Origin: an uncultured Candidatus Peribacteria bacterium
GTDB taxonomy: Bacteria > Patescibacteriota > Gracilibacteria > BD1-5 > JAGOOR01
Length of the DNA stretch: 64,000 bases
Assembly (NCBI GenBank): GCA_964544625.1
Contig: CAZJBQ010000002.1
Coordinates: 49,462 to 113,461 of the forward strand
Reading direction: 5' to 3'
This document shows, piece by piece, positions 9,255-64,000 of this stretch. The stretch's first letter is position 1. The number at the start of each line of letters is the position of its first letter. The notes under the pieces are model-generated. The model searched no databases and was not told the origin of the DNA. It saw only the letters and a list, made by a program, of their open reading frames with translations. The position numbers were made by a program, and so were the translations under genes.

Positions 9255-9695
9255 ATGAAAACTATGCAATGACTTTCATGACTTCTCTGGCTCCAGAAGC
9301 GCAACCGTGAGTTTAATGGATGGTTCGCGGAGTCGAATATAGACTACTATCTCGATGGAGCTCTCAGTGAAATAAATGAGATTAAAAAAAGTATTCAAGA
9401 CAAAAATCACGATGAACTCGAGCTCGAGGTCGGCGATCTCCTCTGGGACGTCCTCTCTCTCATCAACAAGCTCGACCACGAGAAACTGATTGACATGGAG
9501 AGAGTGTGCCCTCGTGCTGTCGGTAAATTCGCAGAGCGTATGCCATACAATGTCGAGTGATACTTCGAATGAGACCCGGTAAAACGTGAAGAACTCTGGA
9601 ATGCCGTCAAAAAACTCCAAAAGGCTCGCGGAATAGATGAACGTCATTGCCTGGTACAAAAAGTCTGGGAATCTGTCGAAAATAACAACATTTAA
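9255..9695 (+). CDS. MazG-type nucleoside triphosphate pyrophosphohydrolase
   Basis: ELELEVGDLLWDVLSL core and overall all-alpha MazG pattern. Four in-frame TGA. Confidence 0.7.
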
Positions 9696-10027: not shown

Positions 10028-10582
10028 ATGCTCTTCGCGCTTTGAACAACTAATACCCCTAAGACAAATGCTATCCGTGAGGCTCTCACGACCTGCCCGT
10101 ACCTCGTAGATAGAGATATCGATATTCGAGGATATCGTGTTGATTCATGAATTGCTGACATGCCACTGACTCTCGTGGATTTGCGAACAGGTGCTCAGAA
10201 TCGTGCAGCAGCGGTGCGCCTCCTCAGTCCTGAGGCAGACTATTTTGTTGGCATGGAGGGGGGTGTCTATAGGGATAGTGTCGGGAATGATTATTGGCTC
10301 ACAGGTCTCGTCTATATGGAAAATAGAGCATGAAAAGGACATTTCGGATATTCATGTCATATGCCAGTGCCAGATATCGTGGTAGAGAAACTCTATGACG
10401 GTTCAGGCAGAGATCTGGAACAAATCATGCATGAGATAGCAGGTGTAGAGAATATCGGTGACCATGCGGGGTCATTCGCTCTCTGGTCATCGAATATGCT
10501 TACCCGAACCGATCAATTTCGTCTCGCGACGCAGTGTGCCATTGTTCCATTTTTTAGTTCTTTTTATACCATGAAAAAATAA
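10028..10582 (+). CDS. YjjX-like non-canonical NTPase (DUF84)
   Basis: ALG(TGA)TTNTPK...GYRVDSG(TGA)IADMP...GAQNRA...EADYFVGMEGGV parallels E. coli YjjX. Confidence 0.75.
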
Positions 10583-12314: not shown

Positions 12315-14714
12315 ATGCCAGACGAGACTCCACCAACATTGCAAACTGTTGAGTATTGAGATATACCTGCACCGATTGGCAATCTTGTTCGATTAGTTGG
12401 TATTCAATGAAAAAAAGTGGTTGATTGAGATTTTTGATCGCTCGTGTTTAATACTCAAGAACGATTGCGGGATATATTGTTAGATTTTGGGTATCATGCG
12501 GACAGTATCCTGAATCTCTGAAACTCCCAAGAAATTTCAGTCTGAGGGTTGCAAGCGGCAGTATTGGAGTCCTATAAAAAATGCATCAAAGAGCCTCTTC
12601 CAAAACACTCCACTACTATAGTAGTACCCAGAACATTAGAGCACAAATCTGATGTAAGAATTGCTCTCAATGCTTTGCGCCAGAGCAGAGCGTATAATGA
12701 GTTCAAGCATATAAAAATATGGCAGCTTCCTCACACTCAGGCACGCGAAAAACTCACCGAAGCAATTTGTTCTGTCGATGCTAACTGGTATACCATATTG
12801 TGTCGTATTTTTCGACTCAACAATCCTGGGGCCATGTCCTGAACTGGAGCTATTCAGTCTCAACCACTGAGAGATTTTTTGTGTGATTATGTTTTTTGTG
12901 TTCCGAGAGAAGAATTCGAGGGCGCAAATACATGACCCAGAAAGCCTAAAAAGCCAAAAAAACCAGAAGGCATGGATGAAACAGATGAGTTAGTATGGGT
13001 ATTTTTTCACTGAAGTGATTCAGTTGCTGCGATTACTGAACCTGCTCAGCTGGCAAAAATATGTGATATCTCTGAGAAAGAGTGTAGTCGTAGGTTGATA
13101 AAACTCGGACTGATCCCATGAGGAGAAGTGCGTAAAAAACGTCAGTATACCAGAAGAATTCCTCGTCCATCGGAACCGCCGGTGGATGTACCACCAGTAG
13201 TTTCTCCGACAGAACCCACCAGAGCTGATCAGGGCCAAGTGACAGAGGTTGTGCCAGAGCCTATTGCTCCTGCGCCTACTCCAGCGCCAGAAAAAAGAAA
13301 ACCTACACATCCAGATATTCCAGGTGATATTGATAGTTACGATTGACTCATTTTGTGGCTTCAAGAAGAGCGACAGGTACCACTCGTACATTCTCTCAAA
13401 AATACTCTCGGCTGAGCGAAAGCAAGACTTACGGCTCATCGCTCGTTAGAGGCAATGATTTTCTGAGATTTTGGAGCAGGTCGGATTGAGCCTGTGATTT
13501 TACAATTAGTGAAATTTTTTGATTCCCAGAAAGAACTCGCTGAATTTATCGCAGAACTCAGAGAATATCGAGCTCCAGTAAAACCAAAAAATCATACACC
13601 AGTTTCAAAAATGATACTATCTCCTCCAACTTCACTTCCTCCGTCATCCCCTGTGCCAGCAACAGTTCACCTCATGGTACTTGGTGCATTAATGCCAACA
13701 CAGAAGAACTATGAATGATTTTTGACATGGTCTCGTAGTCAAACAAAGATAGTAGAAGTATTACAAGATTTCTGTACAGATTTTCTCGCATTAAGCGGTA
13801 TTATCAGAGCACCTGGCTCTATGGATGTCATAAAAAAATTTGGGAGAGATTCAGAAATATGGAAATTTTTGACTGAAGGAGCACGATTAAAAGGTAGTGT
13901 AACGGATATGTGACAAGTGGCATTGGATATAGCCCAGATAGATCTCTCCGCGTTACGTGTTGCTTCACAATCAGCAACGCCTGCTCTACCGCAAGTGCAG
14001 GCTGATCCACCAACGCCAGCAACAATTCCGAAAAAAAATCCTCCTCCAGTACCCGTCGTACAAAAATCTCTCGAGGATCAAATGCTTGAACTCATGATAG
14101 AGGCTCAGGAGAATAAGGTTTGAATGAGATATGTCTGACCTATTGCGAATGCCTATATGAATGGAGAATATGAGAAAGCTGGAGATGTGTATGAACAATT
14201 CAGGGCACTGGAGTGGAGGGATGATGAATCGGATGATTCTGAAAACAATGCTACCGTGAGTCTCTATAACACTCTTGTTGAGCTACAGAAAAAGCGACAT
14301 GAAGCAAAACAGCCAATATCAATACTGGGGCTCATCGTAGAGTTATGTGGTTATGAATTCGAAGAAGATCCATTGTATGACTACAAAATAGAGCATCACT
14401 GGGAAGAAAGACTGGGAGAAATGTTAGCTGATAGTGGCGTCACCTCCGAACAAGTAAAAGCATGGTGTGAACAACAAACTATGAGTCATTTATTAGAGGA
14501 ATTGCGGCAGATACAAATCTGTGTTCCATTGGGGCATACAAAATGGCTGCAATGGCAAGAAAAATCTAGTCTAGAGACTAATCTAGCTCAATTTATGGAA
14601 TCTCTCATAGCTCACGATCACCTCGGAGAGAAGAGATGGAATTGACAGATTGATATCAAAGAATTGAAGAAAAAACTTCGTCATATCAAATTTCCATCGA
14701 CAGACGAAGAGTAA
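12315..14714 (+). CDS. large hypothetical protein (799 aa) with Pro-rich linkers
   Basis: Seven track ORFs (12549, 13128, 13494, 13722, 13917, 14157 ...) are all in frame 0, joined by TGA with no TAA/TAG. TAA at 14712. Confidence 0.6.
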
Positions 14715-14945: not shown

Positions 14946-17900
14946 ATGCCCTTCTCTCTCCCCAAATGAAAACCCGAGTTCTCAAAACTCGAAGAATCTA
15001 TCCTCCAGTATTGGAAGGAAAATAAGACCTTTGAAAAATCAGTCGAATCCAGGCCGGCTGAAAATCCGTATCGATTCTATGATGGTCCTCCATTTATCAC
15101 GGGTACTCCGCATTATGGGAGCTTGCTATCTTCGATAATCAAGGATGTTGTTCCTCGCTATCAGACCATGCTCGGGAAGCGCGTCGAACGTGTCTGGGGA
15201 TGGGATTGTCATGGACTTCCAATTGAGCAAAAAGTACAGAAAAAATTATGACTTGAATCAAATAAAGAAATCGAAGAATCAGCAGGTGGAATCCAGGGAT
15301 TTATCGATGAATGTTACGCCTACACTCGCGATACTTCAGCAGAGTGGAGCTGGTATATCGATCATATCGGTCGATGGGTGGATATGGAGGGTGCGTACCG
15401 CACGATGGATCAGAACTATATGGAGTCGGTCATGTGGGTCTTCAAACAAATCTGGGAGAAAGGATATATCTACGAAGGGAAGCGTGTTTCGTGGTATTCT
15501 TGGAAGCTCTCGACCCCGATTTCAAACTTTGAAATCGCGATGGATGACAGCTATCAGGATGTCCAGGATCCAGCGATTACGGTGAAATTTCCACTCACAC
15601 AAGATACCTCAAAACAAGATGAGGTGCAGGGGTGAAAATTTGAATATACAGAGGATGGATATCTCCGATATGTCCTCGCAGTCATCCGAAATGCTGATGG
15701 TGAAGTTCTCATGCTCCAAAATAAAAAACACTGAAATACATGGCAATGTCCTGGTGGAAAAATTGACGCAGGAGAAACGGCAGAAACGGCTCTCAAAAGA
15801 GAAATAAAAGAAGAACTCTGAGTCGAGATAACCATCAGAAAGCATCTCTGAAATCGAAAAGTTTTCACTCAGCGTACTTTGTGGCAAGGGGAATATTTCG
15901 AAGTTGAGTTATTATCAAATCCAACTATTCAAGAACCAGAAAAACACGCCCAGATGCAGTGGATGAAAATCATAGACGATCCAGAACTCGTTCATGGTTA
16001 CTATCTCCAGTATGGTGAACATATTATTACCGAACAGCTTGGTCGGATGTATGATGCTCTCGCACTTCGAGCAATAGAGAAAAAATTACCTGAACTCAAA
16101 AGCATCTCATTGCTCGCATGGACAACAACCCCGTGGACTATACCGATGCATATGGCGATTGCGGTGCACAATGACCTCACGTATGTGTTAGTGCAAATTG
16201 AAGATGAAGCCTATTTGGTCGCGAAAAACCGTCTTGAGACCGTCATGAAAGGCAAAAATTTTACTGTTCTTACTGAATATCCTGGTTCATTCTTGGTTGG
16301 TAAATATTATCGTCCACCATTTGATTATTACGTCGGAAAAATCGATGAGAGAAATTTCCGTGTCTATCACGCTGACTTCGTCACTGACACTGATGGTACT
16401 GGTATCGCTCACGAAGCTCCAGAATTTGGTGATGTGGATTTTCAGCTTGCGAAGCAAGAGGGGATTTTCATCACGTCTGCAATCGATGAAGCAGGGAAGT
16501 ATACGGCACAAGTCCCAGACTATCAAGGCACGCTCTATATCGATGCTATCGACCCTATCACGGAACGACTCAAAGCAGAAGGAAAACTCTTCAAAAAAGA
16601 AGGTATCACTCACCGCGTCCCATACTGTCCTCGCAGCAATACGCCACTCATGCAGAAAGCCCAAAAGTCGTGGTTTATCGATATTCAGAGAATCAAATCT
16701 GAGCTCATCGCACAGAATGAAAATATCAACTGGTTTCCAGATCACTTTAAGCATGGACGATTTCTCAAATCTCTCGAATCTGCTCCAGATTGGTGCATCT
16801 CTCGCTCTCGTTTTTGGGGAACGCCGATGCCTGTATGGCAAAGTGCAGACGGTTCTGAGCGTGTCGTCATCGATTCTCGCGAAGAATTGTATCAGAGAAA
16901 TAAACCACTTGGTCAGATAACAAAGATTATTTTTGTGAGACATGCGGAGAGTGAAGCGAATGTAGCAAAAATGTATAATGATAATGGAACGTCTCCTCTG
17001 ACAAAGAAAGGACATGAGCAGGCAAAAAAACTCGCTCAAAGTCTTGAACAAGTTGATGTTGTACTTTGTTCACCATTTTTGAGAACAACGCAAACAGCAG
17101 AACCAATTGCACAAAAATTCGGACTTGATATTGAGGTTCGAGAATATCTCCATGAAACCAATCATGGCACACTAGCTGATCAAACACAGACAAAAACGGT
17201 ACTGGAAGAAAGAAAAAAATTCTTCGAAAATCATGACCATAAGTTTGGTGGAACAGGCGAATCATTCAATGATCTTATTGCTCGTGGAGAGGTTCTCCGA
17301 CAAGAAATTCTCGCAAAATATCCTGGGAAAACAGTCGTGGTCGTGAGCCACGGACATCCAGTCAAGGCATTTCTCGTCGCATGTGGAGCAAAAAGACCAA
17401 GTAATACTGAAAATGCAAAACCATACGTACTCTATCTCGATAACAACACAGGCAAGGAAATCAATCTCCACCGTCCATATATTGATCGGATTTATGTCCC
17501 ATGAAAATCTTCTTTCACTCCGAAAAAAGTGCTCGGTATTCATGGATGGACTTCTGCTGGCATCCAAAATCCGCAAGGAAAATGGTTGCCAATTCAAGAA
17601 AAGCTCAAAGCTGCATGAGTGCAATTTGATGTACCAGATTTTGATAAAAATAAGGAAACGAAATATTCACTTTGGAAAGAGAAGCTCGATACTCTGGATG
17701 TAGCAAGTTATGATACCATTATGGCAACGAGCTTTGGTTGTCCTGTTATCATGCAGTACCTCTGTGAGAGAAATATTAAATTAAAACGTCTTGTGTTGGT
17801 TGCTCCAAGTGGTCTCAAAGGGAATGAGTACCTCGAAAAAGTGATTCCAGAAATGACGGAAGATGTTGAGAAACTTCGATGACTCGTGGAAGAAATAATA

Positions 17901-19646
17901 GTCCCCCATAGTGAAGACGATGACTCGACCAGCGCACGATTTGAATACGGTCAATCACTCGCAAAAAGAATAGGTGCAATATTCCTCCCTATCAATGGTG
18001 TAGGTCATAAATTTGGAGGTTGGAGTATTGATTTTCTTTCTTCTCTTATCCAACACGGAGCCCCACTCCGTCGCGTCTCCGAAGTCCTTGATGTGTGGAT
18101 GGATAGTGCTTCGATGCCGTATGCACAAGTGCATTATCCATTTGAGAATCAAGCGAAAATGGAAGCGAGTTTCCCAGCCGATTTTATCGCAGAATACACA
18201 GGGCAGATTCGTGCATGGTTCTACGTGATGCACGCGATTGGCGTGATGGTAAAATGATCGCCAGCCTTCAAAAATGTCGCTGTCACATGAGTCATCAATG
18301 GAACTGATGGACGCAAGATGAGTAAATCCTACGGAAACTATCCTGATCCTCGTGAGACGATTCAGAAATACGGTGCTGACGCGATTCGCTTCTACCTCAT
18401 GGGCGGTACGCTGATGAAGGGTGAAGATATGGCATTTTCAGAAGCAGGTATTCAAGAATCAATCAAACGAGTCCTCCTTCCGCTCTGGAATTCCTACACT
18501 TTCTTTGCGACCTACGCAAATATCGATGAATGGGAATTCACGGATTATTCAACACCAAAGACACACGAACTCGATACATGGATTATTTCTCGTCTCCATA
18601 CATTGATTCAGGACACGAGAGTCTCAATGGATGCCTACGATCTCCAGAAAACGTGTGATGCTATCATGGTCTTCCTTGATGGTCTCAATAACTGGTATAT
18701 CCGGCGCAATCGCAGACGTTTCTGGAGAAGCGAACTCGATGCAGACAAAAAAAGTGCGTACGAAACACTCCATGAAGCCCTCGTCACAATGACGAAACTC
18801 CTCGCACCTATCTGTCCATTTATCACTGAGCATCTCTATCAGAATCTCATGAATACGACGGAATCACTGCATCTCACTGACGTCCCAGCAGAAAGCAGAG
18901 AGCACCTCCACCTCGCCGCGAAACAGAAAATGACACACCTCCAAAATCTCACCAATCTCGGTCTCGCTATTCGTGGTCGTGAGAAACTCCGCGTTCGACA
19001 GCCACTTCGAGCAGCGACGATTACCCTCGAACTCGATGAGAGCGCACGAGAGACACTCGCTGAAGAATTGAACGTCAAGGAAATACACAGTGTGAAAGAT
19101 GTCTCGGACTATGTCACCATTACCTATTCTCCTGATGCGAAAAAAATCGGAGCGACTGAGAGAAAACAATGGATGAAAACCATTATTGCTGATGCAAAAG
19201 CAGGGAAGGGGAACCTAACTTCAGAGGGGACTCTTGAACTCACGGTCCCAGAAGCACCAGACGGAAAAGTGGTTCTCGCTGCGGATGAATTTGAAGCGGT
19301 CTATACACCAAAAGAAGGTTCAACCATTGCTTTTGCTGGTAGCGCAGGATACGTCATCGGTCTCGATACAACCCTCGATGAAGCACTTACCTTTGAGGGC
19401 TATGCTCGTGATATGATTCGCGGTATTCAGGACGCTCGAAAAGAACTCGGATTCCAGGTCACTGATAGACTTCAACTCGCACTGACATCAGACAATGAAA
19501 TGCTTGGAAAAATTCTCGCCGTCCATCAAGGTATGATTGAAAAAGAAACTCTCACAACTGTCGAACTTCAGACTTCAAATCCCGAAAATACGAGAGAAGT
19601 CGAAATCGATGAAGGCTTTATGATTCATCTCAGTCTTACAAAATAA
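14946..19646 (+). CDS. ileS: isoleucyl-tRNA synthetase with three inserted enzyme domains (1566 aa)
   Basis: PHYGS (HIGH-type), WDCHGLP, WTTTPWT, LHRPYID and KMSKS motifs. All track fragments (15378, 15879, 17619, 17886, 18318) are in frame 0, joined by eleven TGA. Confidence 0.95.
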
Positions 19647-25433: not shown

Positions 25434-28268
25434 ATGACTCTGGACTCCATCCGCAAGCGCAATAATGAGCTTGTTCCCTTTGACCGCTCTCGCATCGAAA
25501 GTGCTATTGAGCAGGCTTGTATCGCTATTGGTTATAACGATATAGCCTTTATACCCCAGATTACGACAGAGATCATTCTCGCTCTCCAGACTCGATTCGG
25601 AGGAACAGAATATGTCCCGAGTGTGGAGGATATCCAGGATTCAGTAGAGCTTCATCTCATGCGCTCTGGTCGATTCGAAGTAGCAAAAGAATACATCACG
25701 TACCGTCAGAAGCGTATCGAAGAGAGAAATGAAATCGTCGAAGAAAAAATCGAAAAACAAGAACTCAAGGTCCAGAAACGTGATGGAAAAGTAGAAGCAT
25801 TTGACATGGGCAAAGTTCGTCGTGTTTTCGAACTCGCTGCCAACGGTCATCCAGCGATTGATCTCGATCTCCTCGTGAGCAACTTCCACACCAATATATT
25901 TGATGGTATCCACTCTCGAGATATCGCTCAAGCGACTATCATGACAGCGAAGAGTTATATCGAGCGTGATCCGCAGTACTCATACCTCGCTGCCAAGCTC
26001 TTCCTCATGAACTACTACAAGGACCTCATCGGTTCTGCAGATATGAAAAATTCTGGATTTACCAAGTGTTATCATGAAGCATTCAAATACAACCTCAAAT
26101 TCCTGGTAGAAACAGACCATCTCTCTGCTGATCTCATGTCATATGACCTCGATAAACTCGCAGAAGCAATTGATCCAACCCGAGACAATATCCTCACCTA
26201 CCTCTCAGTTCAGAATCTCTACGACCGATACTTTATCCACCATGAGAAAAACCGTCGTGAACTCCCACAAGCATTCTGGATGCGTGTCGCTATGGGTCTC
26301 GCAAAACGAGAAACAGATAAAGAAAAATGGGCAATCCAATTCTATCATCAGCTCTCACAACTCCACTTCGTGAGCTCAACTCCGACCCTCTTCAACTCAG
26401 GGACAAAGCGAAGTCAGCTCTCATCATGCTACCTCTCAACAGTTGATGATGATCTCCACTCAATTTTCAAAATCATTGCCGATGATGCTCAGCTCAGTAA
26501 ATGGGCAGGAGGTCTCGGAAACGACTGGACCAATATCCGTGCGACAGGTTCAAAAATCAAGGGAACAAATGGTGAATCTCAGGGTGTTATCCCATTCCTC
26601 AAGATCGCAAACGATACTGCTGTAGCAGTCAATCAGGGTGGTAAACGAAAAGGTGCGCTCTGTGCGTACATCGAGTGTTGGCATCTTGATTTCCCAGATT
26701 TCTCAGAACTCCGCAAAAATACTGGTGATGAGCGTCGTCGTACTCACGATATGAATACGGCTGCGTGGATCCCTGATCTTTTCATGAAACGTGTACAGGA
26801 AGACGGTAATTGGACACTCTTCTCTCCATCAGATGTTCCAGACCTTCACCACATCTACGGTTCTGCTTTCGAACGCAAATACGCTGAATACGAGAAAATG
26901 ACTCACAATGGTCAAATCACACACTTCAAGGTCATGAAAGCAAAAGACCTCTGGAGAAAAATCCTCTCTATGCTCTTCGAGACGGGTCACCCATGGATTA
27001 CATTCAAGGACCCATGCAATGTCCGCTCTCCTCAAGACCACGCAGGTGTCATCCACAACTCAAATCTCTGTACAGAAATCACACTCAATACTTCAGCAGA
27101 AGAGACAGCCGTGTGTAACCTCGGTTCAGTCAATCTCGCTCGTCATATGAAGGATGGAAAACTCGATCATACTATGCTCGCAGAAACAGTAAAAACTGGT
27201 ATGCGTATGCTCGATAATGTCGTCGATATCAATTTCTACCCAACAAAAGAAGCAGAAACTTCAAACATGCGTCACCGACCCGTCGGTCTCGGTATCATGG
27301 GTCTCGCAGATGCTCTCTACATGCTCGATATCGATTTCGACAGTGAAGAAGCTGTGAAATACAACGATGAAATGATGGAGGCTATCAGCTACTACGCTAT
27401 CCTCGGTAGCTCTGAGCTCGCAAAAGAACGTGGTGCCTATTCATCTTTCCCAGGTTCAAAATGGGATCGCGGAATTCTCCCTCTCGATACACTCTCTCTC
27501 CTCGACGCTGAGCGTGGTGAACGTGTCGATGTGAATCGTAACTGTACTCTCGACTGGACTCCAGTACGCGAATCTATCAAGCAGTACGGTATGAGAAACT
27601 CTAACTGTATGGCTATCGCTCCAACAGCAACTATCTCAAATATCGTTGGTGTCTACCCATGTATCGAACCGATCTACAAAAATCTCTACGTGAAATCAAA
27701 TCTCTCAGGAGAATTCACTGTCATCAATGACTACCTCGTCGCTGACCTCCAAAAGGCTGGCCTCTGGGACGCTCAGATGGTCGCAGAACTCAAGTTCCAC
27801 GATGGTTCTATCCAGAAGATTGACCGCATCCCAGCTCGTCTCCGCGCGAAGTACAAAGAAGTCTTTGAAATCTCACCAGAATGGGTGATCAAAGCTGCTG
27901 CTGTCCGTGGTAAATGGATCGACCAGTCTCAGTCAGTTAATATCTTCATAAAAGGTGCTTCAGGAAAAGTCCTCAACGATACCTATATGATGGCATGGAA
28001 GATGGGTCTTAAAACCACTTACTACCTCCGAACTCTCGGTGCTACGGCTATCGAAAAATCAACCTCTGCGTCTGCTGCTCTCGCTGGTTCTCACGTTTCA
28101 AGTGGTACAACAGCAACTGTCGAAGCGGTCGGTGTCACAGCTCCATCAGCACCAGCAGTTCCATCAGGAGAACTCGAGATGTCTGCAAAACCAAAAAAGG
28201 AATACACTGAAGCCGAAAAGGTCATGTGTTCTATCCTCAATGGGCCCAGCTGTGAAGCTTGTCAGTAA
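25434..28268 (+). CDS. nrdA: class I ribonucleotide reductase alpha subunit with N-terminal ATP-cone(s)
   Basis: Intact 944-aa ORF. ATP-cone N-terminus, NLCTEI active-site motif, C-terminal CEAC pair. Confidence 0.95.
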   Translation: MTLDSIRKRNNELVPFDRSRIESAIEQACIAIGYNDIAFIPQITTEIILALQTRFGGTEYVPSVEDIQDSVELHLMRSGRFEVAKEYITYRQKRIEERNEIVEEKIEKQELKVQKRDGKVEAFDMGKVRRVFELAANGHPAIDLDLLVSNFHTNIFDGIHSRDIAQATIMTAKSYIERDPQYSYLAAKLFLMNYYKDLIGSADMKNSGFTKCYHEAFKYNLKFLVETDHLSADLMSYDLDKLAEAIDPTRDNILTYLSVQNLYDRYFIHHEKNRRELPQAFWMRVAMGLAKRETDKEKWAIQFYHQLSQLHFVSSTPTLFNSGTKRSQLSSCYLSTVDDDLHSIFKIIADDAQLSKWAGGLGNDWTNIRATGSKIKGTNGESQGVIPFLKIANDTAVAVNQGGKRKGALCAYIECWHLDFPDFSELRKNTGDERRRTHDMNTAAWIPDLFMKRVQEDGNWTLFSPSDVPDLHHIYGSAFERKYAEYEKMTHNGQITHFKVMKAKDLWRKILSMLFETGHPWITFKDPCNVRSPQDHAGVIHNSNLCTEITLNTSAEETAVCNLGSVNLARHMKDGKLDHTMLAETVKTGMRMLDNVVDINFYPTKEAETSNMRHRPVGLGIMGLADALYMLDIDFDSEEAVKYNDEMMEAISYYAILGSSELAKERGAYSSFPGSKWDRGILPLDTLSLLDAERGERVDVNRNCTLDWTPVRESIKQYGMRNSNCMAIAPTATISNIVGVYPCIEPIYKNLYVKSNLSGEFTVINDYLVADLQKAGLWDAQMVAELKFHDGSIQKIDRIPARLRAKYKEVFEISPEWVIKAAAVRGKWIDQSQSVNIFIKGASGKVLNDTYMMAWKMGLKTTYYLRTLGATAIEKSTSASAALAGSHVSSGTTATVEAVGVTAPSAPAVPSGELEMSAKPKKEYTEAEKVMCSILNGPSCEACQ

Positions 28269-53230: not shown

Positions 53231-55894
53231 TTACCCTTTATACTGCTTTAATTCCTCCCGCGCTTTCTCGATCTGTCGGAGGGTGACTTCTTTTTTCTCT
53301 TGCGTGAGTCGGATGACATTTTCTGGGGCTTTGCTGACGAATGTTGAATCCATGAGTTTGATTTCGAGAGTACGAACGTAGTCTTCTTTTTCGGCGATGA
53401 GTTTCTCGAGGCGTTCGATATCGTCATCGCGAGTACAAGCACTTGTATCGACGAAGACCTCTACTTCGCCTGCCATGCCGTAGGTGTATTTTTCACGAGA
53501 GAGTCCATCTTTGGTGAGTGTAAAGTTCACCTCACTTGCCTTACCGAGACCAGTGATGAGGGCGATATTGCGCTCGAGAGTGGCTCTATCGCGAGGGTTG
53601 GCATAGATAACGACAGCGACCGCTTCGCCTGGTTTGATTTTGCGATCACCACGAATAGTACGGATAGTTTTAACGACTTCAAAGACGGACTTAATCAGCT
53701 CTTCGCTTTCTTCATCGATTTCAAAAACGCATTCTGGCCATTCACTATCAATCAGTGTTTTCTTCGGTACGAGAATACCAGTGAGCGCTTCAGTCACAAA
53801 TGGGATATAGGGGTGCCAGAGCTTCAAAAGTGTGAGGAGGGTATACATCATCACTTCTTTTCCGTATTTTGAATCATCTTTTGAGAGTTTGAAACATTCA
53901 ATCGCATAGTCCGCGAATTCATCGCGCGTAAATGAGACGAGCTTGTCGCCCATCATCGAGAAATCATTCTCCTCCATACCACGAGTGACGTCGTTGGTTG
54001 TTCGTTTGAGTCTGGTGAGGATCCATCGCTCATAATCGAGGAGTTTGCTCCAATTTTTTTTCAGTGTTTTTTCGAGTTTTGTCGTATCGGTATCGACTTC
54101 GATTTTTTTCTCTCCACCCACATTCATCCAGACGAATCGTGCGACATTCCAGAGCTTATTGAGGAAGAGTTGATTGTTTTTTACACCATCGATGCTGAAT
54201 CGGAGATTATTCCCTGGAGTATTCCCAACGACGAGAGAGAGACGGAGGGCATCCGCAGAGTATTTCTTGATGACTTCGATTGGATCAATACCGTTATTGA
54301 GAGACTTCGAGAATTTACGACCTTGGTCATCCGTGACGAGACCGTGGAGGTAGATAGTTTTGAATGGCGTTTTATCTGTCAGTGCGTAGCCGAAGAGGAG
54401 CATGCGAACGACCCAGAAAAAGAGAATATCATGACCAGTTTCGAGCACTTGCGCTGGATAGTATTTTTCGAAGAGTTTCCCTGGTTTCTCGAAATTCCAA
54501 TCGAGCACTGCCATAGGCCAGAGTGCTGACGAAAACCACGTATCGAGGACGTCTTCATCACGGACGACATTGTCTTTACCGTGTTTTTTGTACAGCTTTG
54601 TCGGATCATCAGTGACGCCGAGGAGGTCTCCCGTTTCTTTGTCATAATACGCTGGTATCTGATGTCCCCACCAGAGCTGACGACTGATACACCAATCGTG
54701 GAGATTGGTCATCATGGTCTCAAATATAGCACCATATCTGTCTGGTACGATTTCGAATTCTTTTTTTGCCCAGCCAGCCATGACTTTTTCGCTGAGTTTC
54801 TTGTTGTCGACGAACCACTGTGTTGAGACAATGGTCTGGACACGCACCCCACCACGTTCAGAGTATCCGACCTGAGAGACGTGAGGTGTGACTTTCATGA
54901 GATTTCCTCTCCCGCGGAGCATATTGATCATGAGTTCGCGTGCTTCGAGCTCTGTTTTACCAGCGAAATCGCCCGTATGTTTCATCATGATACCATTTTC
55001 GTCGATGACGCGGTAATCGACGGGGAGATTATGGCGCTTGGCTGTTGCAAAATCAGCTGGATCGTGTGCCGGAGTGACCTTGACCGCGCCTGTTCCGAAT
55101 TCCATATCGACCATTTCATCACCGATAATTGGGATTTTGCGATTAGCGAAGGGGAGAATTGCTTCTTTTCCGATGAGTTTCTTGTATCGTTTATCCTTTG
55201 GATGCACGGCAATTGCCTGATCCGCGAGGAGAGTCTCGGGGCGTGTTGTGGCTATAACGAGCTCTTTATCAACTCCAGAGACGAAATAGGCGATTTCATA
55301 GAGAAATCCCGGTTCTTCTTTGTAGACGATTTCAGCATTGGAAATAACGGTTTTATCTTTCGGACAATAGTTCACCATATATTCACCACGATAGATGATT
55401 CACTCATTGTAGAGATGGACAAAAGTATCAGTCACGAGTTTGTTGTTCGCGTCATCGAGGGTGAATCGTTCATGGTCCCAACTGACACTCGCGCCCATCA
55501 TACGCATCTGGCCAGTGATGGTTCCGTGGCAGGCTTCTTTCCACTCCCAGACTTTTTCGAGAAATTTCTCACGTCCGATGACTTCTTTTTTGATTCCTTC
55601 TTTGGCGAGATTTTTTACCACGACATTTTGTGTCGAAATACCCGCATGATCGGTCCCTGGTACCCAGAGAGTTTCATCGCCTTTCATACGATGGTAGCGT
55701 ACCATGACGTCCTCGAGAGCGAGCATGAGAGCATGTCCTGTATGGAGTACTCCTGTGACATTTGGAGGCGGGAGAGGGATATAAAACGTCTTACCAGTGC
55801 GAGATTTTTTGGGAGCGTAGAGTCATTTTTTCTCCCACATTTCAGCGAGTGACGACTCAAATGCAGAAGGTTCGTAGACCTTTGGGAATTCCAT
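53231..55894 (-). CDS. valS: valyl-tRNA synthetase
   Basis: PPPNVTGVLHTGH and KFSKS motifs, C-terminal coiled coil. Fragments 53231 and 55400 are in frame with ATG 55894. Confidence 0.95.
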
Positions 55895-57330: not shown

Positions 57331-57906
57331 TTATGGTGTTGTTGATGTTGTGCCAGTAGTTGTACCACCAGTAGATGTTTTTATGAGATCGCTTGTTGGA
57401 TCAAATGAAGTTCTCTCTGTTGTGACAGTTGAGTTGGTGCCTGGGATATTACAACTTCCGAGTTCATACTTGTCTGTATCGATTGATTTACCACTCACAT
57501 CATCAGCACCGTATTTTCCAGTATTGTTTGAGCTTTCAAAAGTTGCAGCAAGGAGATATCCAGTACCACCATCACAAGGCATATAAAAATAACCACATGT
57601 AGTTGCAGTTTTGCCATCCGCCTTGAGACAAGCAGTTGCTGTTGAGCCGAGTTTTTCGACGATATCTTTACCTGCCACTTCTTTGACATACTCAGCGAGT
57701 TTGCTAGCATCATCAGGGACAACTCATTTTGATTGTACGGCATCGAGGAGGACGATATTGATGGCATTGAGATCAGCGATACGAGTCGTATCACGAGCTC
57801 CTTTGATAAATTTACCATACTGTGAGATACCCGCTGTTGCGAGGATGGCGATGATAGCCATGACGACCATGAGTTCCACGAGTGTAAAACCTTTTTGATT
57901 TTTCAT
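57331..57906 (-). CDS. type IV pilin/pseudopilin
   Basis: Prepilin leader plus GFTLVELMVVMAIIAILA N-terminal helix. One TGA. Confidence 0.8.
57779..57897 (-). repeat. 119-nt near-identical 5' coding segment shared with the second pilin gene
   Basis: One mismatch versus 58445-58563. Confidence 0.85.
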
Positions 57907-58038: not shown

Positions 58039-58572
58039 CTACGCTTCTCCTGAGATAGTTTTTCCGGTTGGAATAAGATGAGAATCATCAAACGAACCAA
58101 CATCCCCGGCAGGATTATTGCAACTCCCTATCTCGTATTTGTCTGGATCGAGGGTTATGCCACTGACGTTATCCTGTGCATATTTTGCTCTATTGTTGGA
58201 GCTCTCAAATGGTGTTGCTAGGAGAAAACCCGTACCACCATCACAAGAAATATAATAATATCCGCAGTGAACGGGGTTGTCATTACTATTGAGACAAGCG
58301 GTAGATGTATTACCGAGTTGTTCAGCGATATTTTTCCCAGTGACTTCACGTATATAACGACTTAATTCTTGAGCATCACGGAGAACCACTCATTTCTTTT
58401 GAATTGCATCGACGAGAACCACATTGATAGCATTGAGATCATCAATACGAGTCGTATCACGAGCCCCTTTGATAAATTTACCATACTGTGAGATACCCGC
58501 TGTTGCGAGGATGGCGATGATAGCCATGACGACCATGAGTTCCACGAGTGTAAAACCTTTTTGGCGGTGCAT
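58039..58572 (-). CDS. type IV pilin/pseudopilin (paralog)
   Basis: Same N-terminal helix. The C-terminal domain is a diverged homolog (CGY.Y..CDGGTG.LLA..FESSNN). Confidence 0.8.
58445..58563 (-). repeat. 119-nt near-identical 5' coding segment shared with the first pilin gene
   Basis: One mismatch versus 57779-57897. Confidence 0.85.
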
Positions 58573-60716: not shown

Positions 60717-60814
60717 AAAACATATGATACATTTATATTTTTTTTGTCAAAAATACTCGCCAGAGCCGTTGACAAAAGAAAAATATCGGTATTTTGTCAC
60801 GAATAAGATTATTT

Positions 60815-63800
60815 ATGTGTAGTGTCACTCGTATAAGTGCTCCAGTTTCGGAAAATAACGACCAATATTCATACTTATTGGATAGGTTATGAATTTTGAG
60901 CGTAACACATCCACAGATTTGTTCTGTCAATGAGATGCGACAAACACAGCAGCTAATCGGCTGAATTGCAACGGGTTTTTCGACGGAAATGCGAACAGAA
61001 CAGTATGAGAAAATGCCTTTTTGCGACAAGGTAAATTTTATAAGAGCGTTTGTATTAACAGAACCGATTTGCGCATATCTCCAAAAAATGTATGAGAGTA
61101 ATCCTCAAATTATGCGGAGTGTTATGCATGTCACAAAGGGATTTTTAAGACAGGATCCTAGATATGATTTTGCATTTTTAGCATTACAGCTTTTTCTCGG
61201 TGATAGATTAGCACAGGATCATAGAGATATCGTCTCAAAAGCACGATGAGCTGAACAACTCAGCGAAATTGATGTCGAAAGATTGCGATTAATTTTGAAT
61301 AGTTGGACATATATGGCCATTGTACAAGAGTCTTCTTGGGGGTCTCCATCATCCCGTTTTCCAGTTAACTCATTTTTACAACAATTTTCCCCAGCATTTA
61401 TTGAGGTAGCTCATTGGCATGCTCCCCTTGAAACAAAATTGAAATCTTTTTTGCATGATGAAAACTGGACCAGTTTCCATGATAGAATATTGCATCTACG
61501 GTATGATGATTATCCAGAAGTGCTGCTCCGTATTGGTCCGATAAAAAACCACGAGACAATTTCTGTAGAAGAAATGTCAGCATTTCGTGCTCTCTTGGCG
61601 AGTCAAAATCTCGCTTGTTATGAGGGGATTATGCATGAGTTGTGACAAAAGGATATGCGTTACTTATGGTATCAAATCATAGCAGAAAAACCTAAACTAC
61701 TCCAAGAAGCACAGAGATTCCCTGTATGTCCTCCAAATCGTCTCAAACAACAAAATCCTCTACGTTATGCTTTAGAAGAGCTTTTAGGGAAGTTGCCTGA
61801 TAATTTTTATCGTTTACAACCGAGGAAACCCCTGTCACCATTTTCTGCTGTAGGTAGAGCCCCAGGAAAAGTAGTAAGAATTCTCGAGCGATTCGATTCC
61901 GAGCCTGATGATTTTGATTTAGTGAGTAAAGAAGAAAGAATACTTCTCCAAAAACGAGCCGAACTAAACCTCAGGATCACCAATATACTGAATGGAGCCG
62001 AGAAAGTGTCGACTGGAAAACTAGAGCAGCTCAAACAAGAAGAACGGGAAATATCTGCACGATTACGTCAGATAGTGAGCAAGATCCCAGATATATTATC
62101 AGCGGAAGATATACGAACAATAGAACAACAAAAAAAAGCGGAAGAGCACAGAGAAAAGCATATAGATATACATGTCGATTGAATACATTGGAATGCACCA
62201 CATAAATCACAAGCAACACATATTGATTTTTCTAATTGTGAAATTCCTGGTGGTGTATCAGCCGTACTTACTTGCGAGACGCCTTATGGTGATACTAGGG
62301 TGCTCGCGGAAGTTATTTTCCCGCTTGCAGATCCAATTCTTACAATACCGGATATTCAGGAGATGTATAAGGGGTGAAAATTTCACTATACAATGACATT
62401 TTCATGTCCTCCGTGAAAAGAATTTGCCATAGATACAACACAGATGGTTCGTCGTTTTAGTACAGACTATGTCAATCCGCAACTGACACCGGATGAGTTG
62501 AGAATGAGAGAAAGAGCAGCTGAAATACTAAAATTCAGAATCAAGAGAGCAAAAAAACTGCAGAAAAAAGAAGAAAAAGAAAAGCAGAAAATGTCATGAA
62601 GAAAAATACAAGACCAGACTCAGCCAATTCAGTTATCGGAATATGAGTGAGATATGGTGGTGCTTTGAATTATTCTCGAGGCGTTTCAGAACGATATCAA
62701 ACCAAGCGTGAGTGATGAGGGAGCTATTGTGTATAATCTCGCACAGCATCTCGCACAACTCGGGAAAGGATATATCTTACACGGCGATTATTCTCGAGTC
62801 ACTGTGAGCAAATGAGCCATATCTCCTACCGTAGACCCAGCCATTGCAGAACTCTTATATGTATTAGCGGAACGAGATAAACCACCCCAGAATGATTGAA
62901 CTCCTGTAGAACCAGAAGATCAACCAGATCCAGAATATCTCGCATTTCGTAGAGAATTGCAACCAATATTTGACGCTCTCAATACTTATCGTTTTGGTAC
63001 AAAAGAAAAATGAGCCACTAATGCTAATCCTTTTCCCACACTCAACGAACATCTCCGACAATTAGGGGCAAATATATATATGTCTTCAGACAAGCAAACT
63101 GTTACACTCCAGATACGGCCTGTTTTACCAGTGAGTAATAATAGAGCGCAAGTGAGAAAACAGCCAGGGAATATGGGTATATTTGCTCATCTCTTGTCGG
63201 GATGAAGTACAGATATGTCCAAAGTAACCTGTACATTAGCATATAATAAAAATCATGATACAGTGCTCCGTAGGGTGCATGGACAAAAGATTCCATTAAT
63301 GAGGGATTGTGGATGAAGTATTCCACCACCATCACTCAACTCTAGCCAAAGAAGAGCTATACGAGACCTAGAATTACGACTCAAAGAATTGCTCCATTTT
63401 TATTTTGCTTCTGCTGCAGAACGTGCTCATATAATCAGAGAAGAGCATGAATCACTCGATCTCGGGAAGAAATTTCAATCAGCACTGGAGAAATGACAGG
63501 CACGTCGTCTTCATTTAGCGGTTGATAATCTATTAGATAAGTATTCAAATGGAGTTGGTAATTTATTCCCACCACTTTCTCGGCCTCAAATAACATCCGA
63601 TGTTGGAGAGATGGTGCCCCTGTCTTGTCCGCCTTCAGACGAAACGGTCTATTTGCTCTATGCTGACAGCGCTATCGAATTCAAATGAGAAGGGAAAAAA
63701 TCAATTGATCCAAAACAAGTAGAAGAAACACGCGAACATAGGTTGGCTCGATTAGAAAGTCTCCGAGTGTCTCCCTGGTGACGGGAGCTCCTACGAGATC

Positions 63801-64000
63801 GAGTTGTAGCGACATTACAGGCAATAAAACGAGATAGAATCAATGTCTGATCTCCTGCCTTTGAGGCCCTGAAATCGTGTTTTACGGAGAATCAGTGGAA
63901 AAATAAATCACGAGAAAAAGCAGACGAGGCACTATTAGATAAATTTATTCAAGCCATGAAAGACAGGGAAGTGTCAGTGGCATTTCGTAGGCCTATTGTT
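60815..64000 (+). CDS. very large hypothetical protein, 3'-partial (runs off the window)
   Basis: Frame 2 is open from 60719 to the window end with only TGA interruptions. Track ORFs 60989, 61283 and 61655 are all in frame 2. The start is uncertain (60815, 60935 or 60989). Confidence 0.55.

Follow-up and report, generated by a model that had tools for sequence, protein, structure and literature searches.

A type-2 isoleucyl-tRNA synthetase with three predicted nested hydrolase domains in an uncultured Candidatus Peribacteria bacterium, and signs of cassette exchange among its relatives

The DNA analyzed here is a 64,000-nucleotide stretch (the window) of contig CAZJBQ010000002.1, positions 49,462 to 113,461 of the forward strand, from assembly GCA_964544625.1 of an uncultured Candidatus Peribacteria bacterium. 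Its subject is the isoleucyl-tRNA synthetase (IleRS) gene ileS, an open reading frame (ORF) on the plus strand running from the ATG at 14946 to the TAA at 19644-19646. A first-pass annotation, made from the letters alone, had described 1566 codons without TAA, TAG or frame change, about 500 amino acids (aa) more than is usual for IleRS, and had ascribed the excess to three enzyme domains inserted in frame. Continuity and length were both borne out: the frame holds no internal TAA or TAG and 11 TGA codons, read as glycine, and its product is 539 aa longer than an insert-free relative (P0055, 1027 aa). The gene is composed as follows, in window coordinates.

14946-19646 (+): ileS ORF, 1566 codons plus TAA, 11 TGA as Gly
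14946-15593 (+): N-terminal half of the IleRS Rossmann fold, aa 1-216 (Pfam tRNA-synt_1, motif conservation)
15111-15122 (+): HIGH-type motif, reading HYGS (motif conservation)
15594-16106 (+): insert A, predicted Nudix hydrolase, aa 217-387 (Pfam core 15666-15971; absent from P0055)
15756-15824 (+): Nudix box, within insert A
16107-16901 (+): connective peptide 1 (CP1) editing domain, then back into the catalytic core, aa 388-652 (Pfam, motifs; WGTPMPVW near the end)
16119-16139 (+): WTTTPWT motif, in CP1
16395-16430 (+): GTGxxHxAP-type motif region, 12 residues, in CP1
16902-17462 (+): insert B, predicted branch-1 histidine phosphatase (dPGM/PhoE/PspA-like), aa 653-839 (Pfam, PDB matches)
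16938-16943 (+): Arg665-His666 of insert B, aligned together with Arg713, Glu737 and His802 (17349-17351)
17346-17357 (+): distal SHGH of insert B
17466-17486 (+): host motif LHRPYID, aa 841-847, between inserts B and C
17508-18065 (+): insert C, predicted YdeN/RBBP9-like alpha/beta serine hydrolase, aa 855-1040 (Pfam, PDB, homologue model)
17730-17732, 17919-17921 and 18006-18008 (+): triad Ser929, Asp992 and His1021 of insert C
18072-18572 (+): IleRS catalytic core, second half, aa 1043-1209 (Pfam)
18315-18329 (+): KMSKS, exact match
18573-19013 (+): anticodon-binding helical domain, Pfam Anticodon_1, aa 1210-1356
19050-19616 (+): C-terminal DUF5915, typical of type-2/eukaryote-like IleRS, aa 1369-1557

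The inserts are flanked by canonical IleRS motifs, with ITVKFPL before insert A and LHRPYID between inserts B and C; insert C takes the place of a host loop of 3-4 residues (NG-N or DGKN). The IleRS core runs on at both sides of every block, and in relatives without inserts the same flanks are directly contiguous, so that the blocks are in-frame domain insertions and not neighboring genes, as had been proposed. Block positions agreed with the first-pass annotation within about 15 codons, and its coordinates for the Nudix box, the Arg-His pair and SHGH were exact.

When read with translation table 11, the ileS frame contains 11 stops and the region is split into many ORFs. TGA was assigned to glycine (code 25) because TGA codons sit on glycine-conserved columns: codons 102, 292 and 1115 fall on such columns of an alignment of 120 homologues (given as W in entries translated with code 4), and codon 292 is the invariant, penultimate glycine of the Nudix box. 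TGA accounts for 11 of the 104 glycine codons of ileS. The TGA codons near the starts of the first and third blocks are ordinary glycine codons, with direct evidence for codon 853, which belongs to a host loop (PGK) that relatives without insert C also have. A role of junction TGA codons as signals was rejected for this host-loop residue. An Rfam search of the whole 64 kb gave no family at the gathering threshold, and no T-box or other leader upstream of ileS.

An artefact, whether chimeric assembly of the metagenome or a spurious fusion of separate genes through a sense reading of TGA, would agree with the metagenomic type of the sequence and with the tRNA scan of the 64-kb window, which gave no tRNA genes and hence no tRNA-Gly(UCA). 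Against it, TGA lies on conserved glycine columns, those of catalytic motifs included; TGA as a stop would cut an essential gene into 12 pieces; and Saccharibacteria with the standard code carry in-frame inserts with no TGA at all. In addition, the same junctions were found in at least six independent assemblies (JGI, ENA, GenBank). P0001 (JGI, 137-kb contig) and P0002 (ENA) have the same three inserts in the same places with conserved junction peptides, one of which reads LIQ.GAPLRR..EVLDVW. A scan of GTDB species genomes yielded code-25 ileS genes encoding 1542-1636 aa with Nudix, histidine phosphatase and serine hydrolase in four more assemblies, one of which is the closed 1.05-Mb chromosome OZ246415.1. 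Since independent assemblies, a closed chromosome among them, repeat both the architecture and the junction peptides, chimeric assembly, for which the first-pass annotation had proposed a check, is effectively excluded, and an artefact of either kind is extremely improbable. We regard it as close to certain that the locus encodes a single-polypeptide type-2 IleRS, with three nested hydrolase domains, of a code-25 bacterium of the candidate phyla radiation (CPR).

The host part of the protein is a class Ia type-2 IleRS by sequence, with synthetic and editing motifs retained, and isoleucine-specific aminoacylation is predicted. Pfam matches of the code-25 protein comprise tRNA-synt_1 (7e-117, split), Anticodon_1 (1e-28) and DUF5915 (4e-29), and the solved structure closest to P0055 is IleRS2 of Priestia megaterium (8C8V, E=4.8e-225), the nearest structures overall being IleRS2 and eukaryotic IleRS. 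KMSKS is kept in 121 of 121 sequences of the family alignment (the last Ser in 120), as are TTTP and the final Thr of WTTTPWT, the two Trp being present in 118 and 113 of the 121. At the HIGH position HYGS is read; H, Y and G are conserved, and at the fourth position, His in the signature, 92 of 116 relatives have Ser and just 18 have His. Going by the titles of PDB entries, changes in the HIGH motif underlie mupirocin hyper-resistance in IleRS2, in view of which HYGS is an unusual variant of the class I signature. The window protein and IleRS2 (8C8U/8C8V) have the core, CP1, the anticodon domain and DUF5915 in common. Unlike 8C8V, the window protein reads HYGS and has about 540 extra residues in three unrelated enzyme domains, placed at about 212-216, 480-486 and 497-512 of 8C8V numbering.

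Insert A is, by its sequence matches, a MutT-like member of the Nudix superfamily, with no equivalog-level assignment. Pfam NUDIX (PF00293) matches aa 241-342 with 66.0-70.3 bits (cut-off 21.1), the box GX5EX7REUXEEXGU is complete, and a PDB sequence search returned the MutT/Nudix protein 4dyw at 8e-10. The NCBIfam equivalogs for MutT 8-oxo-dGTPase stayed below cut-off (TIGR00586, 50.7 vs 97.9; PRK10776, 44.9 vs 148). Across the inserts at this site the Glu and Arg residues of the box are conserved at about 85-90%, the exceptions including GNAT domains misaligned at the same site.

Similarly, insert B matches Pfam His_Phos_1 (PF00300) over aa 661-817 with 123.9-128.9 bits (cut-off 21.7), and its best PDB match is the phosphoserine phosphatase PspA (4ij5, 4e-16), with PhoE and CobC behind. 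The catalytic set is present: R665-H666 (in RHAE), R713, E737 and H802. Among histidine phosphatase inserts, Arg is conserved in 31/31, His in 30/31, Glu in 27/28 and the distal His in 24/26. NCBIfam likeness is to the acid phosphatase half of RNase H/acid phosphatase, PspA and CobC, with equivalogs below cut-off (PspA, 88.8 vs 350; CobC, 76.6 vs 162.9; dPGM_arch, 76.9 vs 225).

For insert C, the match to Pfam Ser_hydrolase (PF06821, aa 865-1021) is marginal, with 26.7 bits in the whole protein and 31.7 for the insert alone (cut-off 22). A PDB search with the insert returned YdeN (1uxo, 1e-5), and a profile of 12 C inserts found YdeN at 9.5e-16 and RBBP9 at 2e-4. The nucleophile elbow reads ATSFG, and S929, D992 and H1021 are each invariant in 21 of 21 inserts. 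A word-indexed database search with insert C gave 13 matches, mostly short fragments and no convincing stand-alone close relative; three of the 13 carry only a tRNA-synt_1 Pfam match. These short database proteins (P0121-P0133), named 'predicted alpha/beta hydrolase family esterase', are apparently code-11 ORF fragments of TGA-cut ileS genes. P0122, for instance, starts within ...LNLHKPYID... and is a code-11 fragment of a relative's ileS.

Structures were modeled for two homologues, P0114 and P0122. In the AlphaFold2 model of P0114 (1187 aa; Nudix at the first site and histidine phosphatase at the second), the mean predicted local distance difference test score (pLDDT) was 85.7 and the predicted template modeling score 0.80, both inserts being mostly at pLDDT 85-95. 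Foldseek matched this model best to IleRS structures (7D5C, 8C9D, 1ILE and others) with target-normalized template modeling (TM) scores of 0.66-0.88. The query-normalized TM score was about 0.6, as expected if about 30% of the chain consists of extra domains around an intact core. P0122 is 63% identical to the window sequence and spans insert C; its domain part was modeled with pLDDT 85-97, and Foldseek placed YdeN (TM 0.73, root mean square deviation 2.4 Å) and RBBP9 at the top. The models, which are those of homologues and not of the window protein, thus predict inserts that fold as confident, separate domains around an intact IleRS core. The three folds recognized at first sight, a full Nudix fold, a histidine phosphatase and a YdeN/RBBP9-like hydrolase, were all recovered by these profile and PDB searches, and for the third also by the model of the relative.

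The 120 best database relatives were mapped onto insert-free P0055. They are IleRS of Gracilibacteria, Absconditabacteria/SR1 and allies and range from 883 to 2143 aa; relatives of the window bacterium bear the labels Ca. Gracilibacteria or Ca. Peribacteria. Full-length insert-free members have about 1027-1030 aa, and many others carry the same extra Pfam domains as the window protein. Inserts occur in 78 of the 120, with one to five per protein in 18 combinations, at the following sites.

Site A, P0055 position ~216, just before WTTTPWT: Nudix (n=34), GNAT (n=2)
Site B, position ~495, before LHRPYID: histidine phosphatase (n=30)
Site C, position ~510-520, after LHRPYID: serine hydrolase (n=21)
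Site D, position ~553: GNAT (n=3), Y1-transposase-like (n=1)
Site E, position ~677, after the KMSKS region: histidine phosphatase (n=48)

In 8C8V, sites A to E correspond to residues ~212-216, 480-486, 497-512 (the CPVCSG loop), 535-540 and 665-672. Site A is the entrance of CP1, and sites B and C are adjacent loops beside LHRPYID, in a peripheral subdomain of the second Rossmann half. Further sites (A2, B0) are rare. The window protein has the architecture A+B+C. The largest relative (P0021, 2143 aa) has five inserted enzyme domains: tandem histidine phosphatases at B, a serine hydrolase at C, a GNAT at D and a histidine phosphatase at E, with the tandem histidine phosphatases flanking LHKPYID. 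At site D of P0083 (aa 792-1004), an IS200-like Y1 transposase domain lies in frame (Pfam, 1.3e-08). The histidine phosphatases of sites B and E form separate, site-faithful clades and are 18-32% identical within one protein, and recent intragenic duplication was rejected on these grounds.

Inserts were also found outside the code-25 lineages. Saccharibacteria IleRS of about 1200-1340 aa (Pfam-matched stretches of 1197 and 1323 aa) use the standard code without in-frame TGA, and several (L021, L023, L075 and others) carry at aa ~238-379, in the same site A loop, a low-molecular-weight (LMW) phosphotyrosine/ArsC-type phosphatase (PF01451, LMWPc) with CX5R intact. In L075 this domain stands in tandem with a Nudix domain at site A; TM7-H1 (L068) has none. 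Because standard-code Saccharibacteria carry them, nested inserts are not tied to code 25. The first-pass annotation had suggested looking for the same insertion points in IleRS orthologs of other code-25 and CPR genomes, and predicting the structure to see whether the inserts protrude from the CP1/connective regions; the insertion points recur, and the models of relatives show confident separate domains with an intact core.

No nested inserts were seen in the window's valyl-tRNA synthetase (ValRS; 53231-55894 (-), 887 aa) or in its 120 nearest relatives, of which full-length ones measure 850-940 aa. An exhaustive HMMER search with the histidine phosphatase insert gave 11,611 relatives; among the best 150, every protein above 450 aa is an IleRS, and the other matches are mostly stand-alone single-domain (~150-250 aa) or tandem double-domain (~400-450 aa) proteins. 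Other host proteins were thus sought without success. Taken together, these comparisons establish that the window protein belongs to a modular system of CPR bacteria that is specific to IleRS and makes use of five or more permissive loops.

Ratios of nonsynonymous to synonymous substitution (dN/dS) were obtained by the Nei-Gojobori method under code 25. They were 0.02-0.10 for the IleRS core, 0.028 (vs L006) and 0.057 (vs L008) for Nudix alleles of the same type, and 0.066-0.084 for hydrolase alleles of the same type (vs L002, L003, L004 and L007). Because dN/dS is as low as in the core and catalytic residues are conserved, the codon comparisons demonstrate inserts that are translated and functionally constrained, under purifying selection.

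In a core-only neighbor-joining tree, occupancy is a mosaic within the clade of the window, where core identity is 87-89% overall and 83-99% by segment. The architectures in this clade are A+B (P0003, P0004, P0006), A+B+C (window, P0001, P0002), A+B+D (P0005) and A only (L008). Identities of single inserts with those of the window protein vary independently:

Window vs L006: Nudix 98%, histidine phosphatase 41%, serine hydrolase 37%
Window vs L004: Nudix 24%, histidine phosphatase 35%, serine hydrolase 92%
Window vs L001: Nudix 25%, histidine phosphatase 74%, serine hydrolase absent

The window Nudix has its closest counterparts (54-55%) in IleRS with cores of just 45-60% identity, and the relatives with 88% core identity are not among its top 14 matches. 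DNA identity profiles fall sharply at the insert blocks. The divergent tract linked to the Nudix domain reaches about 80 codons into CP1, where identity is 57-63% with relatives having another Nudix type, 95% with L006 and 86% with L008. Synonymous divergence (pS) in swapped blocks is 0.59-0.81, generally above the 0.41-0.70 of the core. No flanking direct or inverted repeats were found at the inserts.

Since insert identities are decoupled from the core, pS is high and the CP1 tract is divergent, the data point to import of old divergent alleles by homologous recombination. Divergent ileS alleles would recombine homologously at breakpoints within conserved core sequence, and entire cassettes would in this way be acquired, lost or substituted. 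Neither fast evolution in situ nor a site-specific mobile element fits. Judging from these sequence comparisons, recombinational cassette exchange between ileS alleles is likely. Mosaic combinations of alleles in single metagenome contigs could in part be strain chimeras, which weighs against exchange; it is the distinct types and the presence/absence states that are replicated across assemblies, not every combination.

Mosaic presence and absence in a conserved essential gene is also a feature of inteins, and a Y1-transposase-like domain lies in frame in one relative. Both would suit intein-like or transposon-derived selfish elements that either are excised from the finished protein or ride along neutrally. 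A Pfam scan (E<0.01) of the window protein returned synthetase, NUDIX, His_Phos and Ser_hydrolase families only, without Hint, intein or homing endonuclease families. By inspection, the C-termini of the inserts lack the His-Asn followed by Cys/Ser/Thr of a splice junction, and no terminal repeats or target-site duplications were found. The conserved residues are catalytic residues of non-splicing enzymes, in domains with dN/dS of about 0.03-0.08. Selfish elements are consequently a highly implausible explanation. The likeness to inteins lies in nesting within conserved essential proteins, patchiness and fixed sites; in contrast, window-type inserts are without splicing or homing domains and would remain part of the finished protein, under selection for the enzyme chemistry that they bring.

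As to what the cassettes do, a functional link to by-products of aminoacylation is preferred, tentatively and by analogy. The inserts would act as tethered small-molecule hydrolases on substrates of the aminoacylation cycle. Nudix and histidine phosphatase would form a MutT1-like two-step clean-up of (di)nucleotide polyphosphates, such as diadenosine tetraphosphate (Ap4A) or damaged nucleoside triphosphates (NTPs). Proteins with a Nudix insert at site A carried a histidine phosphatase insert in 29 of 36 cases, compared with 38 of 84 proteins without Nudix, in counts not corrected for phylogeny. The Ap4A link is speculation by analogy, with MutT1 as a partial precedent: mycobacterial MutT1 is a natural Nudix plus RHG histidine phosphatase enzyme acting on 8-oxo-(d)GTP (PMC11784022). 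MutT1 (NF052459) likewise joins an N-terminal Nudix domain and a branch-1 histidine phosphatase in one polypeptide. Matches of the window inserts to this model are weak (23 and 29.4 bits vs a cut-off of 475). Unlike in MutT1, the window domains lie about 270 residues apart with the IleRS editing domain between them, and each also occurs alone, so that the comparison is an analogy only.

As an extra deacylase, the RBBP9-like hydrolase would act on hydrophobic amino acids whose alpha-amine is free, splitting their esters or amides. RBBP9 is reported, by Shenoy in 2020, to activate the L-valyl ester valacyclovir. [quoted passage not shown] This is the chemistry of deacylating an aminoacyl ester. 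YdeN of B. subtilis (1UXO) and human RBBP9 have the same fold and Ser-Asp-His triad as insert C; they differ in being stand-alone proteins of about 190 aa, whereas insert C is nested in IleRS and its alpha-amine anchor is not clearly conserved.

Several points weigh against the functional link. The RBBP9 anchor Glu108 aligns to a variable loop, reading GNEYLEK in the window subtype, with an alignment uncertain by about one residue. All inserts score below every NCBIfam equivalog cut-off, and the insert families are heterogeneous and include GNAT and a Y1-transposase-like domain. Finally, 42 of the 120 relatives are insert-free and occupancy varies among close relatives. IleRS can therefore function without the inserts, and passive hitch-hiking would account for this just as well.

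By hitch-hiking is meant that housekeeping enzymes with substrates unrelated to aminoacylation sit in permissive loops of type-2 IleRS, kept since nesting in an essential, constitutively expressed gene secures expression and retention in a streamlined genome. Besides variable occupancy and the mixed families without equivalog-level assignment, this agrees with the prediction of the inserts as separate, confident domains. It also agrees with the stand-alone NTP pyrophosphatases MazG (9255-9695 (+)) and NTPase_I-T (10028-10582 (+)), 4-5 kb upstream of ileS, since house-cleaning functions are normally free-standing here; with these two present, the genome keeps free-standing nucleotide-sanitizing enzymes beside the nested Nudix. 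Chance insertion, on the other hand, does not predict the strict host specificity (IleRS and not ValRS, and only IleRS among the long histidine phosphatase hosts of the best 150 matches). Nor does it predict the convergent recruitment of Nudix, histidine phosphatase (at two independent sites) and LMWPc in separate CPR lineages, though permissive loops could explain site fidelity. We consider hitch-hiking, the chief competitor of the functional link, rather unlikely.

The inserts could further be conflict modules that detoxify natural IleRS inhibitors (aminoacyl-adenylate mimics, mupirocin-type esters) or toxins, with an arms race driving their diversification and exchange. As such a race would have it, hosts that are nearly identical carry deeply divergent allele types in independent combinations, and cassettes turn over rapidly. 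All families are small-molecule hydrolases or transferases. Immunity to aminoacyl-nucleotide antibiotics can come from GNATs and hydrolases, and the mupirocin-resistant form of the synthetase is, according to structure titles, type-2 IleRS. The one direct line of support is the match of the Nudix insert to the PADLOC candidate PDC-S07 at 8e-19, a score no better than that of the generic Pfam NUDIX. Alleles of the same type are moreover under strong purifying and not diversifying selection, and no toxin or immunity genes were seen adjoining ileS in the window and in the loci of relatives. This makes a conflict role distinctly improbable. A broader proposal, which we think unlikely on the whole, takes IleRS as a modular chassis with fixed loops, into which hydrolase and transferase cassettes from a recombining pool (Nudix, two histidine phosphatase lineages, LMW phosphatase, RBBP9-like aminoacyl hydrolase, GNAT) would plug to form an exchangeable layer of proofreading or self-defense. 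This layer might act on Ap4A or nucleotides that are damaged, on amino acids activated or charged in error, or on natural inhibitors of IleRS. For the composite of nested architecture, cassette exchange and a functional link to aminoacylation by-products, we put the probability at roughly 0.55.

Gene order upstream of ileS (MazG, NTPase_I-T, YgjP-like) and the ribonucleotide reductase gene downstream are common to the window and L002. In L001 and L002 a DUF5655 gene lies directly upstream of ileS. In the window this place is taken by a proline-rich ORF of 799 codons (12315-14714 (+)) with 18 TGA and no Pfam match. Use of TGA for glycine is strongly gene-dependent in the window. The ribonucleotide reductase gene (25434-28268 (+)) has 0 TGA in 54 glycine codons (P ~5e-6 vs a pooled 20% TGA share in seven other genes) and the ValRS gene has 2 in 57 (P ~3e-4), while in two ORFs with no known function (12315-14714 and 60719-64000) TGA makes up about 38% of glycine codons. 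Both low-TGA genes have a higher GC content (0.46); expression level, constraint or horizontal origin are possible causes of the low usage. Elsewhere in the window, two adjacent pilin-like genes (57331-57906 (-) and 58039-58572 (-)) share identical N-terminal segments (…KGFTLVELMVVMAIIAILATAGISQY) and are probably a type IV pilin duplication. The metagenome-assembled genomes L003-L008 (GenBank, labeled 'Candidatus Peribacteria'; phylum Peregrinibacteriota in NCBI taxonomy) have 7-28 in-frame TGA in ileS and are on this account TGA-recoded; the taxonomic label or assumed code of these records may need review.

To our knowledge, aminoacyl-tRNA synthetases (aaRS) are among the most conserved enzymes, and the editing domain is their only widespread nested catalytic module. 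Like the inserts described here, CP1 of class Ia aaRS is a hydrolase domain inserted in the Rossmann fold within one polypeptide. CP1, however, is universal, ancient and integrated, whereas window-type inserts belong to unrelated superfamilies, lie in other loops, are variably present and appear to be exchanged as cassettes. Extra domains of eukaryotic and parasite aaRS (GST, WHEP, EMAPII; insertions in Plasmodium and trypanosomatids) are likewise lineage-specific modules on an aaRS scaffold. Such additions are mostly terminal non-catalytic interaction modules or low-complexity insertions, unlike the window-type inserts, which are internal, combinatorially variable and, to judge from conserved residues, catalytic. 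Domain insertion in aaRS is itself known (CP1), and aaRS are known as preferred hosts of domain insertions (PMC13114784). The first-pass annotation knew of no aaRS with this combination, and neither full-text literature searches nor the AARS Online paper nor a survey of domain insertions from 2026 gave any mention of such a nested-domain IleRS. Database names of such proteins are automatic, for example 'isoleucyl-tRNA synthetase/broad specificity phosphatase PhoE'. Combinatorial, recombining nested Nudix, histidine phosphatase, serine hydrolase, GNAT and LMW phosphatase domains are, as far as we know, undescribed.

There is a practical warning for annotation, as code 11 shatters ileS into spurious 'esterase' and 'phosphatase' ORFs, some of which are already in databases. 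In these bacteria an essential IleRS can accommodate as many as five additional enzyme domains. These appear to be under selection and to be swapped between alleles like cassettes, in two genetic codes and at least two major CPR lineages. Should the inserts be hitch-hikers, they strikingly map out, by natural example, which loops of a class I synthetase permit insertion, something of use to protein engineers and to the study of how genes fuse in streamlined genomes. If they do act on by-products or inhibitors of aminoacylation, they would represent a new mode of quality control or of antibiotic self-protection.

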